Notes: a model not told the origin generated them from the sequence alone. Counted from the stretch's first letter, positions 50,808 to 53,618 are shown. The stretch is DNA of 64,000 bases from an uncultured Brevinematales bacterium (GCA_964392785.1 CAYMRH010000005.1:4778-68777); one strand, 5' to 3'. Translations and numbers: made by a program.

Positions 50808-51116
50808 TCAGCAGCAGGAAGATCCTTTCCCGTCTTCCGAACAGCCGCAGGACGGCTCTGAATTTGTCAGAGCCCCTAAAATTATTGCGGCCGCGCAGCC
50901 CACGCCGGACCTGACCTCGATCGCATTAACGGGACAGTTGGTCTTGCAGGCCCCGCACTCCATACAGGATGGCCGTCGGAGCACGACAGCTTTTTTCCCG
51001 CTCAATTCAAAAACGGCGTGCGGGCAGACGTCCACGCACATTCCGCAACCGATGCATTTTTCCACGTACAGCCGCAGGGTTGAACCGTTTAAAATATACC
51101 GGGATAAATCTTTCAT
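50808..51116 (-). CDS. hgcB: Mercury methylation ferredoxin HgcB
   Basis: CIGCGMC..VCP, CMECGAC..NCP, GVGCA, C-terminal SCC; directly downstream of hgcA. Confidence 0.95.
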   Translation of the reverse strand: MKDLSRYILNGSTLRLYVEKCIGCGMCVDVCPHAVFELSGKKAVVLRRPSCMECGACKTNCPVNAIEVRSGVGCAAAIILGALTNSEPSCGCSEDGKGSSCC

Positions 51117-51128
51117 GATCGTCTCCGT

Positions 51129-52175
51129 TTACGCGAGAACGCGGAATGCTGTGAGGGCTTTTAACACAATGCCGGCCGCCATAGCCGTTATCATCACCGG
51201 AGAGCCGATCCGCACTTCCAACTCCGCGCCGGACAGGCTGGTGTAGGTGGTGGATCCGGTAAAATTCATCGCGAAGAAGGATGAGATCGACGCGATGATT
51301 AAGAACGTTCCCGCCGCGTCAAACGGCGCGGGGCGGTGAAGTAAAAATACGGCGGCGAACCAGAGTGACCCGACGGCCAAGCCCTTGAGTGAAAGAGCCC
51401 GGAAAGGGATCCAGGGCAGTAAAACGGGCACAAGAGCGCTCCCCATCATAACGGCGCCGCAGTAGGGAAGAAAATCGACCAATGACTTCAAGAGCCATCT
51501 CGTGGAAAATTCCCGCAAGACAATCCAGTCCAGAAGAAGGATCACAGCCCAGCCGGCCAGATAAATCGGCCATTTTGTTACGATCTCAACGGGAACGAGC
51601 GTGAGCCGGTCCCTCAGCCCAAATTTGACGAGTCGCATGTCCGCTGTCTTGGTCATGCCGTTTTTCAGAAATGCGGGTATGTCCGAGGCGCGGACGGGGC
51701 CGTAAATGACCTGGAATTTTGTAAAACTTTTGACTGTGTGGGCGGCGACTCCGACGGCCCCGAGCTGGGGGCAGATGACCGTGCGGTGGCTGACAATTTT
51801 TTCCAAACCCTCGTTGATAATCCGGTTCACGAGCTCTTTCGTTCCGAAGGTGCCTTTTCCCGCGGCGCACCAGACGTTGATGCCTTTCGTGTCCAGGACA
51901 AGAATCCACGCGTTCACGCCGCCGAGTTCCTTCCTCAGGGTGTCAAATGTCAGTTTGTAGTTGGCCGTGACCAGCACGGGTGATTCCGGCGCCGGTTTAC
52001 CGAGAGCGTAGAGTCCGGGCCTGACACGGTACCGGCCTCGTCCGATACCCAACCGGACCCGCACGGTTCCCAGAACGTCCCGGAAAGACAAACGGGCCGT
52101 GACGGATGGGATCCCGTTTCCGGCAGAGAGGGCGGCCGGGGATGATTCTGGCCGGATTCCGGAATCCCGCGTCAA
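51129..52175 (-). CDS. hgcA: Mercury methylation corrinoid protein HgcA
   Basis: PVLVTANYKLTFD, cap helix GINVWCAAGKG (51855-51878), PQLGA.GV, GP.RA.D, C-terminal TM helices and MNFTG.TTYTS; probable TTG start overlapping the acr3 stop. Confidence 0.95.
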   Translation of the reverse strand: MTRDSGIRPESSPAALSAGNGIPSVTARLSFRDVLGTVRVRLGIGRGRYRVRPGLYALGKPAPESPVLVTANYKLTFDTLRKELGGVNAWILVLDTKGINVWCAAGKGTFGTKELVNRIINEGLEKIVSHRTVICPQLGAVGVAAHTVKSFTKFQVIYGPVRASDIPAFLKNGMTKTADMRLVKFGLRDRLTLVPVEIVTKWPIYLAGWAVILLLDWIVLREFSTRWLLKSLVDFLPYCGAVMMGSALVPVLLPWIPFRALSLKGLAVGSLWFAAVFLLHRPAPFDAAGTFLIIASISSFFAMNFTGSTTYTSLSGAELEVRIGSPVMITAMAAGIVLKALTAFRVLA

Positions 52176-53239
52176 TCGATGCCGTCCAGTTTTAACACGT
52201 CCTCGTTGAACCAGCGCCGGCTGCGGTTGGAGATTTTGACCAGAGTCAGCATGACCGGCACTTCCACCAGCACCCCCACGACCGTGGCCAGCGCGGCCCC
52301 CGAATGGAGTCCGAAAAGGGAGATGGCCACCGCCACCGACAACTCGAAGAAATTTGAAGCTCCGATCATCGCGGCCGGAGAGGCGATGGAATGCGGCAGT
52401 TTCCAGATTTTGGCCCACGCGTAGGCGAATCCGAAAATGAGGAAGGTCTGCACGACCAGGGGCACGGCGATGAGGGCGATGACGAACGGCTGGGACAGGA
52501 TGACGCGGCCCTGAAACGAAAAGATGATGACCAGCGTCAACAGCAGTCCGCCCACGGTCACGTGCCGGAATTTCGGGATCAGGCGGTTGTTCAGGTAATT
52601 CAAGCCCTTTTTCCGGATCACGCCGCGCCGGACCAGGACGCCCAGCGTGAGCGGAACGACCACGAACAGAACGACGGACAGGATGAGCGTGTCGTAGGGG
52701 ACCGTGATGCGGCTCACGCCCAGAAGCAGGGCCGCGATGGGCGTATAAGCCAGAAGGAGGACCAGGTCGTTGACCGCCACCTGAACCAGCGTGTAGGCCG
52801 GATTGCCTTTGGTCAGATGGCTCCAGACGAACACCATGGCTGTGCAGGGCGCCGCCCCCAGCAGGATGGCTCCGGCCAGGTATTCCGTCCGGAGGGATTC
52901 CGGAATGAGATTCCGGAAAACCACGTTCAGGAAAAAGCCCGCGATCAGGAACATGGTGAAGGGTTTGACCAGCCAGTTGGTGACCAGGGTGACCGCCAGC
53001 CCCTTTGGCTGGCGCAGGGCGCCGAAAATGCTGGAGAAATCGATTTTCAGCATCATGGGAAAGATCATGAGCCAGATCAAAAAAGCGATGGGCAGACTGA
53101 CGCGGGCGTATTCCAGCCGGCCCAGAAACTGCGGCACGGCCGGCGCAAACTGGCCGATTGCCACTCCCGCCGCCATGGCAAGAAGGACCCAGAAGGACAG
53201 AAACCGTTCCAGGGCGGGCAGACGCGATTGTGTAGACAC
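52172..53239 (-). CDS. acr3: ACR3 arsenite efflux transporter
   Basis: ER.L..W, MI.PM, NW.VKPF.M, LG.APCTAMV.VW, GASNFFEL.VAVAI.LFG, VEVPVML; GTG start with GGAGG RBS. Confidence 0.95.
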   Translation of the reverse strand: MSTQSRLPALERFLSFWVLLAMAAGVAIGQFAPAVPQFLGRLEYARVSLPIAFLIWLMIFPMMLKIDFSSIFGALRQPKGLAVTLVTNWLVKPFTMFLIAGFFLNVVFRNLIPESLRTEYLAGAILLGAAPCTAMVFVWSHLTKGNPAYTLVQVAVNDLVLLLAYTPIAALLLGVSRITVPYDTLILSVVLFVVVPLTLGVLVRRGVIRKKGLNYLNNRLIPKFRHVTVGGLLLTLVIIFSFQGRVILSQPFVIALIAVPLVVQTFLIFGFAYAWAKIWKLPHSIASPAAMIGASNFFELSVAVAISLFGLHSGAALATVVGVLVEVPVMLTLVKISNRSRRWFNEDVLKLDGID

Positions 53240-53253
53240 GGGGCCTCCGCAAC

Positions 53254-53301
53254 TATATGAGTATATGCTCATATAATAGGCGGGGGCGGAGTTTTTGTCA
53301 A
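53254..53301 (-). promoter_or_regulatory. acr3-hgcAB promoter with perfect 8-6-8 operator
   Basis: Minus strand TTGACA (53301-53296)-17 nt-TATTAT (53278-53273), overlapping TATATGAG-N6-CTCATATA (53254-53275). Confidence 0.88.
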
Positions 53302-53618
53302 GGGCGGCAGCGGGTTCGGGGGAGGGCGCGGTCCCGGCGGTTTTCCCGGAGACAGGATTTGAGTAACGGACCGAGAAAGCGGTGTTTCCGGAACAGGCCG
53401 GGTCTCAGGCGGTAATAAACGAACAGCCCCCTTTTGCGGGAAGAGATCAGACCCGATTGCCGCAGGCGGGTCAGGTGACGGGAGGCGTTGGACTGCGTCA
53501 AACCCAACGCCCTTTCGATGTCGCAGACGCAGGTTTCGCCGGCGGAAACAACCGCGAGAATGCGCAGCCGGTTCCGGTCCGACAGGGCTTTGAGTACGGA
53601 TAAAAGCGACTTGGCCAT
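53298..53618 (-). CDS. arsR: ArsR/SmtB-family repressor 2
   Basis: LKALSD.NRLRIL, CVCD alpha3 metal site, SNASRHL..LRQ.GL, VYY.L. Confidence 0.92.
   Translation of the reverse strand: MAKSLLSVLKALSDRNRLRILAVVSAGETCVCDIERALGLTQSNASRHLTRLRQSGLISSRKRGLFVYYRLRPGLFRKHRFLGPLLKSCLRENRRDRALPRTRCRP

Follow-up and report, generated by a model that had tools for sequence, protein, structure and literature searches.

In a 64,000-nt stretch of DNA from an uncultured Brevinematales bacterium (GCA_964392785.1, CAYMRH010000005.1:4778-68777; hereafter the window, with positions counted from its first letter), the mercury-methylation genes hgcA and hgcB lie on the minus strand behind the arsenite exporter gene acr3 and the repressor gene arsR (50808-53618 for all four). 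It is likely that acr3, hgcA and hgcB form one ArsR-controlled unit, and on balance probable that the locus as a whole would act as a four-gene arsenic-type cluster, repressed by ArsR and released by arsenite, in which acr3, hgcA and hgcB are co-transcribed and hgcA is translationally coupled to acr3. An earlier note, made from the sequence alone, had proposed a single operator-bearing operon and had taken its tight coupling as support for a native role of HgcAB in arsenic handling; comparative anatomy supported the former, while the latter proved to be the weak step of the argument. In my reading arsenic and hgcAB are linked through shared regulation, hgcAB having been drawn into a metalloid-stress regulon, and I do not take the link as evidence that arsenic is a substrate of HgcAB.

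Genes and proteins of the locus

The four genes follow one another on a single strand in the order arsR, acr3, hgcA and hgcB, with spacings of 58, -4 and 12 nt, and all of them scored above the curated NCBIfam cut-offs, in agreement with Pfam. arsR (53298-53618) encodes a 106-aa ArsR/SmtB repressor (NF033788, 90.6 bits against a cut-off of 55; Pfam HTH_5), and acr3 (52172-53239) a 355-aa ACR3-family arsenite efflux permease (TIGR00832 equivalog, 377 bits against 282.8). hgcA (51129-52175, TTG to TAA) encodes a 348-aa protein that matched the HgcA_corrinoid equivalog NF040863 over profile positions 1-322 of 325 (413.1 bits against 275); a profile search of this kind had been suggested in the earlier note, and it bore out the naming of the gene. 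hgcB (50808-51116, ATG start) encodes a 102-aa 2[4Fe-4S] ferredoxin (HgcB_ferredoxin equivalog NF040864, 121.4 bits against 99). A compositional anomaly at the locus was rejected because its GC content (56-60%) is like that of the remainder of the window, and an Rfam scan of the whole window returned no RNA family at gathering score.

The Acr3 translation contains GAAPCTAMVFVW, which fits the APC(T/S)AMV membrane motif with its conserved Cys, presumably the defining residue of ACR3 permeases, and the protein is 58-69% identical to Acr3 proteins from many phyla. The idea that this Acr3 belongs to an hgcAB-specific clade was considered and rejected: the clade is widespread, and hgcA was found nearby in only 3 of the 80 nearest GTDB relatives.

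The HgcA cap helix NVWCAAGK spans residues 100-107 (nt 51855-51878), includes Cys103 and matches the N(V/I)WCA(A/G)GK motif of the corrinoid-ligating Cys, while hydropathy, used here in place of a topology predictor, gave five Kyte-Doolittle hydrophobic segments in the C-terminus (residues 196-348). CFeSP large-subunit structures (2h9a, 4c1n, 4djd) can be aligned, through their C-terminal domain, to the corrinoid domain of HgcA (residues ~32-172), which also matches Pfam CdhD; a sequence search of solved structures returned these CFeSP structures only and no HgcA structure. Likeness to the CFeSP large subunit (AcsC/CdhE) of the Wood-Ljungdahl pathway lies in the corrinoid-binding domain, whereas HgcA differs in its Cys-bearing cap helix and in a transmembrane domain at the C-terminus, and fell below the cut-off of the CFeSP model (79 bits against 306). 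HgcB contains two CX2CX2CX3C motifs, CIGCGMCVDVC at residues 21-31 and CMECGACKTNC at residues 51-61 (CMECGA begins at residue 51; CMECGAC at nt 50946-50966), as well as Cys74 and a C-terminal Cys101-Cys102 that forms the last two residues (nt 50811-50816). The NVWCAAGK, CMECGAC and terminal CC motifs that had first drawn attention to the genes were thus all found at the expected places. Since no sequence feature of a functional methylase pair is missing from HgcA and HgcB, the organism is predicted to be a mercury methylator whose hgcAB expression would follow arsenite exposure.

Promoter, operator and the acr3-hgcA junction

A sigma-70 consensus scan of 50500-54000 returned five promoter-like sites, against 1.3 expected from shuffles. 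The best of them, with 11/12 consensus positions, lies on the minus strand between arsR and acr3 (53273-53301) and would serve acr3-hgcA-hgcB: its -35 element TTGACA (53301-53296) overlaps the arsR stop codon and is followed, after a 17-nt spacer, by the -10 element TATTAT (53278-53273). Overlapping both the -10 element and the presumed start of transcription near 53266 is a 22-bp palindrome (53254-53275; TATATGAGCAT|ATACTCATATA on the coding strand), a putative ArsR operator whose 11-nt arms lie 0 nt apart and are 10/11 (91%) complementary, with a perfect core of TATATGAG-N6-CTCATATA. The palindrome is unique in the window, and ~0.03 matches would be expected by chance. In the related locus L164, a metagenomic contig discussed below, the arsR-acr3 spacer holds TTGACA-17-TAATAT and then a 12-2-12 palindrome (TATGAGTATATT-GG-AATATATTCATA) at the same position and with the same initial ATATGAG. 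The single operator-bearing promoter adjoining arsR that the earlier note described was recovered here in the form of these consensus matches.

A separate hgcA promoter inside acr3, which the same note had named as grounds for doubting a shared unit, was not seen in the 3' part of the gene: over its final 900 nt the scan gave no promoter-like site. For the whole region, terminator-like matches numbered 4, against 5.1 in shuffles, and none fell in any gap between genes; 3' of hgcB the scan gave no terminator-like site, and a weak AU-rich hairpin (z = -1.47) was seen. arsR itself is preceded by a weak promoter-like site on the minus strand (53664-53692; TTGTAA-17-TATCAT, 9/12 consensus), which falls in the intergenic region common to arsR and a divergent patatin gene, and no copy of the acr3 operator was found in that region. 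A perfect palindrome, ACGCCG-T-CGGCGT (53635-53647), stands in the arsR leader between this weak site and the arsR ATG, where it could form a 5' stem-loop or be the site of another regulator.

A second promoter-like site with a putative operator of the same geometry was found at 46801-46868. TTGACG and a -10-like element come first, immediately followed by a perfect 8-6-8 inverted repeat (46830-46851; TATGTGAA-N6-TTCACATA), and then by GGAGG and the ATG at 46869 of a second ArsR gene, arsR2. The pattern TATRTGAR-N6-YTCAYATA, derived from these two sites, matched only them in the 64 kb, even with 2 mismatches. As the half-sites before arsR2 resemble the acr3 operator (TATRTGAR), the two ArsRs might cross-regulate each other's targets.

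The alpha-3 motif of ArsR, ETCVCDI(E), provides Cys30 and Cys32, and two further cysteines, Cys89 and Cys104, lie towards the C-terminus. Alignment to SmtB, CadC and ArsR structures placed the C-V-C opposite ELCVCDI of CadC and ELCVGDL of SmtB, and showed that ArsR is without an N-terminal Cys arm. With an alpha-3 C-x-C pair as in As(III)-sensing ArsR, and with the gene of the Acr3 exporter behind the adjoining promoter, arsenic inducibility of acr3-hgcAB is plausible.

At their junction acr3 and hgcA overlap by four nucleotides on the minus strand (TTGA, 52172-52175), made up of the hgcA TTG (52175-52173) and the acr3 TGA stop (52174-52172), and hgcB follows 12 nt past the hgcA stop; both points had been claimed before and were read directly in the sequence, the TTG in the hgcA frame. 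The TTG is the only credible hgcA start, because the nearest other in-frame ATG/GTG/TTG codons lie at -243 nt and +84 nt, and a start at +84 would cost HgcA the conserved IPxV..L motif that opens the HgcA profile and all relatives. When strain-variant contigs were run through an independent gene caller, the outcome was likewise a 355-aa acr3 product, a 348-aa hgcA product and the identical 4-nt overlap. Strain variants are present in Logan runs DRR438494, DRR438497 and DRR438509. No Shine-Dalgarno core of >=4 nt was found in the 20 nt upstream of the TTG (ctggacggcatcgaTTG), whereas acr3, hgcB and arsR2 have GGAGG or GGAG. For hgcB this is a GGAG at 51126-51123, 6 nt 5' of its ATG, and for acr3 a GGAGG at 53248-53244, 4 nt before the GTG start at 53239, which is also where the L164 Acr3 alignment to the window starts. 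The ATG at 53272, which opens the acr3 open reading frame (ORF), was rejected as the acr3 start because it lies inside the operator and 5' of the likely transcription start.

Start and stop thus overlap and hgcA is without efficient initiation signals of its own (TTG, no Shine-Dalgarno), which are two of the features of translational coupling, and I infer that hgcA is coupled to acr3, with reinitiation following termination. RNA structure at the junction was nothing beyond that of shuffles (z = +1.17). In a literature search no paper turned up that linked hgcA to translational coupling. Overlaps of 4 nt are a common operon junction, and this one advances the argument about the native role of HgcAB little. 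The hgcA frame also runs stop-free through all of acr3, resulting in a 707-aa ORF (53252-51129), but an extended HgcA or a fusion protein was rejected: synonymous-codon shuffles of acr3 gave zero stops in that frame in only 0.4% of trials, but because twelve other window genes were also mostly depleted in +2-frame stops (to about half of expectation in most), the ORF was put down to genome-wide codon-pair bias and chance.

The sequence of events suggested by these elements would be as follows. ArsR would be made from its own weak promoter, and its dimer, bound to the 22-bp palindrome over the -10 element and transcription start, would block the strong promoter. Arsenite (or antimonite) would bind Cys30/Cys32 in helix alpha-3 and release ArsR, allowing a single mRNA of ~2.4-2.5 kb with acr3, hgcA and hgcB to be made. 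On this mRNA acr3 and hgcB would use good ribosome-binding sites, while hgcA, in view of its TTG, the missing Shine-Dalgarno and the 4-nt overlap, would depend for its translation mainly on ribosomes that terminate at the end of acr3, so that HgcA would be made at a low, fixed ratio to the Acr3 pump.

Related loci and the surrounding metalloid island

Searches of GTDB species representatives and JGI metagenomes gave no close hgcA relatives, the best HgcA matches being just 54% and 53% identical, respectively. Four closer relatives (59-63% identical), all metagenomic, were found only in a large protein database, and on the contigs of all four an ACR3 gene lies directly 5' of hgcA, with acr3-hgcA gaps of +15 (L164), +1 (L167), -8 (L168) and +3 nt (L170), and with an hgcA that has an ATG and a visible ribosome-binding site in each case. 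The close acr3-hgcA junction is therefore a conserved feature of this clade.

L164 shares extended synteny with the window, comprising hsp70 (dnaK-like), dnaJ, patatin, arsR, acr3, hgcA, hgcB, dsbD, trx, arsE and arsC. Ten of the shared proteins are 49-73% identical, whereas the two Acr3 proteins (window 52172-53239, L164 3612-4664) are 33% identical, although that of L164 is a genuine ACR3 (437 bits), and the remaining clade members carry the L164 type (66-87% identity). Given this disparity, a distant ACR3 has taken the place of acr3 on the branch leading to the window, possibly along with a new arsR and operator, and the arsR-acr3-hgcA-hgcB layout outlived the exchange. In L168 (2356-2793) and L170 (1833-2270) an LMWPc-type arsC lies 62-66 nt past hgcB on the same strand, giving acr3-hgcA-hgcB-arsC and thus placing hgcAB between two ars genes, and the window and L164 have a convergent dsbD-trx(-arsE) module in place of that arsC.

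The frequency of the layout was assessed in a survey of the closest hgcA loci, 160 in all, to which GTDB and JGI metagenomes contributed 80 each. Directly 5' of hgcA, arsR was present in 47 and acr3 in 8 of the 160, and acr3 directly followed hgcB in 17; the majority of loci had no acr3, and most had no ars neighbour at all. Among the upstream ArsRs of the GTDB set, 31/34 have a C-x-C at the alpha-3 position. A Verrucomicrobiota metagenome-assembled genome (L174, 2148-4249) shows an ATGA overlap of acr3 and the longest hgcA ORF with no arsR upstream; an alternative hgcA ATG lies 47 nt downstream, and this locus is an independent case of the same type of junction. The acr3-hgcA arrangement is hence recurrent across phyla but in the minority, and it is not unique to the window.

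The host is a spirochaete of an uncultured, Brevinematales-like lineage, with the locus on its chromosome. The window encodes ThrRS, PolA, MurD and a protein of the SpiroCoCo/LA_3659 family, and the nearest named sequences to PolA are from Brevinematia/Brevinematales (50-59% identity; Thermospira aquatica 50%), with other Spirochaetota at 43-44%. The SpiroCoCo/LA_3659 protein (19077-21731), an 884-aa coiled-coil protein of a spirochaete-specific family, serves as a lineage marker alongside PolA, and the two agree with the probable spirochaete host proposed before. ThrRS was discarded as a taxonomic marker because its best GTDB matches, 63% identical, were taxonomically mixed, and a literature search found no paper pairing Brevinematales with hgcA.

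The rest of the metalloid island (46264-50772) was assigned by Pfam and NCBIfam matches. An LMWPc-type arsC lies on the minus strand (46264-46689; 73% identical to the L164 ArsC), followed by a plus-strand operon that converges on hgcB and runs from arsR2 (46869-47225) through an ArsE-like thioredoxin (47222-47461), an ArsP_1-family permease (47421 or 47466 to 48650), two half-permeases (48652-49140 and 49137-49682) and a thioredoxin (49679-50068) to a DsbD/CcdA-like membrane protein (50065-50772). In the ORF list arsR2 opened with a GTG at 46755, but it is likely that the gene really starts at the ATG at 46869. The ArsP_1 permease fell below every NCBIfam equivalog cut-off. ArsR2, which heads the ArsE-like thioredoxin/ArsP_1 operon, has no alpha-3 C-x-C but has cysteines near its C-terminus, among them a vicinal CC; a Cys pair in that part of the protein is a mark of methylarsenite-selective ArsRs. 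Two adjacent tyrosine-recombinase genes (Phage_integrase family, 60667-62794) lie just past polA, ~7 kb from the ars-hgc island, and no link between them and the island was seen.

Competing explanations and meaning for HgcAB

Among the closest known systems is that of Pseudodesulfovibrio mercurii ND132, in which hgcAB is co-transcribed with arsR2, repressed by ArsR2 and induced by arsenic (Gionfriddo et al., 10.1101/2022.10.17.512643; AEM 2023); the earlier note had pointed to ArsR-linked control of hgcAB in this species. Both loci have an ArsR/SmtB regulator 5' of hgcAB on the same strand, but ND132 has no further ars gene alongside hgcAB, whereas in the window Acr3 lies between arsR and hgcA and overlaps the latter, and the strong promoter and operator are downstream of arsR, not upstream. 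In ND132 ArsR2, known here by the paper's description, the metal site consists of four cysteines (Cys47, 49, 86, 88), which the authors set against canonical ArsR, while in the window ArsR the classical alpha-3 position is taken by Cys30 and Cys32, and Cys89 and Cys104 are additional. The same study noted ArsR with hgcAB in Spirochaetes. Neighbourhoods in diverse metagenome-assembled genomes include hgcAB flanked by acr3, arsC, arsM and arsR (McDaniel et al. 2020, PMC7438021 Fig. 6), and in a lake where acr3 and arsC were also found in the vicinity, hgcA genes preceded by arsR were less transcribed (Peterson et al. 2025, PMC11984097 Fig. 4c); in another study ars genes were near hgcAB on 4/35 contigs. 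McDaniel et al. and Peterson et al. present the same gene set and idea, with hgcAB beside acr3/arsR-like genes and Spirochaetes included, but as co-localisation, and the start/stop overlap, operator sequences and the arsR-acr3-hgcA-hgcB order as a clade feature do not appear in the passages considered. Compared with canonical arsR-acr3(-arsC) operons with R773-type ArsR, the window has the alpha-3 C-x-C, the palindromic operator over the promoter, an ACR3 exporter encoded by the first structural gene and, not far away, an LMWPc arsC of the thioredoxin type, but two non-ars genes (hgcA and hgcB) are inserted in the unit, and arsR apparently has its own promoter and lies outside the operator-controlled unit.

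Several observations weigh against an ArsR-controlled, translationally coupled unit. The acr3 promoter and operator are consensus matches only, and a 9/12 promoter-like site inside hgcA (51322-51295) could add independent transcription of hgcB. The third Cys of the R773 triad (Cys32/34/37, ELCVCDLC) is absent from the window ArsR, and CadC and other sensors of Cd/Pb/Zn have a C-x-C pair as well. Among the clade members, only the window has a TTG start without a Shine-Dalgarno; as the relatives start hgcA with ATG and their own ribosome-binding sites, coupling is no conserved requirement. Differences from a strain-variant contig (L081, 98% DNA identity) are mostly patchy: about 30 of ~57 fall in hgcA codons 2-23 (52105-52170), where length and frame are kept but the peptide is nearly wholly different, and 17 more lie within 51750-51950. 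This could reflect a recombination patch or an unconstrained N-terminal tail, and such strong divergence between strains points to little constraint on the tail, which slightly lowers confidence in the start assignment. Lastly, transcription of hgcAB and methylmercury were not consistently coupled in ND132 (10.1101/2022.10.17.512643), and more hgcAB transcript therefore need not mean more methylmercury.

An incidental adjacency, with hgcAB expressed from an unrecognised promoter of its own inside acr3 after landing in the ars island by shuffling and escaping ArsR control, seems unlikely. It would fit the reported discordance of hgcAB phylogeny with species trees and the view that the pair moves horizontally (PMC7438021), as well as the replacement of acr3 at the locus, the scarcity of acr3 directly 5' of hgcA in the survey, and a promoter scan that was limited to sigma-70-type sites. 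Nevertheless, the scan left the last 900 nt of acr3 empty, and the overlap of the hgcA start with the acr3 stop would force both a promoter and a ribosome-binding site into the acr3 coding sequence. The tight junction is moreover found in five clade members across two Acr3 types, between flanks (hsp70, dnaJ, patatin on one side; dsbD, trx, arsE, arsC on the other) that are chromosomal and stable. If ArsR does control the operon, its effector may be something other than inorganic arsenite, such as Cd, Pb, Zn, Hg, methylarsenite or S-adenosylhomocysteine, which I hold to be improbable: the ArsR/SmtB family has many ligands, the C-V-C is common to CadC while the third R773 Cys is missing, and ND132 ArsR2 also responded to treatments that raise S-adenosylhomocysteine (10.1101/2022.10.17.512643), but R773 ArsR requires only Cys32 and Cys34 for arsenic binding according to the same paper, the window ArsR is without the N-terminal Cys arm needed by CadC-type alpha-3N sites, and the gene immediately downstream of the promoter encodes an ACR3 arsenite exporter that clears its equivalog cut-off by a wide margin, in the same island as arsC, arsE and an ArsP-family permease.

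A functional link would go further, with the HgcAB of this clade acting on arsenic itself, for instance by corrinoid-dependent As(III) methylation and export of the products via the ArsP-family permease or Acr3. The position of hgcAB between acr3 and arsC in L168 and L170, the retention of this slot through the acr3 replacement, and the C-x-C arsR directly 5' of hgcA in 47/160 related loci are all compatible with this, as is a 7-kb island in which no arsM was seen, yet an ArsP_1 permease and an ArsE-like thioredoxin are present. I nonetheless consider it quite unlikely, as HgcAB is not known to methylate arsenic, deletion of hgcAB in ND132 left arsenic resistance unimpaired (10.1101/2022.10.17.512643), most hgcAB loci lack an ars neighbour, the ArsP_1 permease does not reach any equivalog cut-off, and halomethane dehalogenation has been proposed instead as the native function of HgcAB (2026 preprint). 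By the same token, the step from tight coupling to a native role in arsenic handling is weak, given 8 loci of 160 with acr3 directly 5' of hgcA and the intact resistance of the ND132 deletion strain. A wider version, in which HgcAB of the Brevinematales clade, made in step with the Acr3 pump, would be a working part of the arsenic response through ArsM-independent methylation of arsenite or a different metalloid, with mercury methylation as a side reaction, is an equally long shot.

The association of arsR/acr3 with hgcAB was already published between 2020 and 2025, and the locus adds no new principle. What is new, going by the contigs compared here, is the arsR-acr3-hgcA-hgcB order conserved in a Brevinematales-like clade, which survived replacement of acr3, together with an explicit candidate promoter and operator, and a twin operator before the arsR2-arsE-arsP operon. 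The locus bears on the native function and regulation of HgcAB, and methylmercury production has public-health weight. For these questions the ArsR-controlled unit proposed here is a more direct test case than ND132, because a classical As(III) Cys pair, a clear promoter and operator, and pump and hgcAB occur in one apparent unit, and the promoter, ArsR and operon are small enough for rebuilding in a reporter host. The ecological prediction is that some spirochaetes would raise their methylation capacity in arsenic-bearing anoxic sites.

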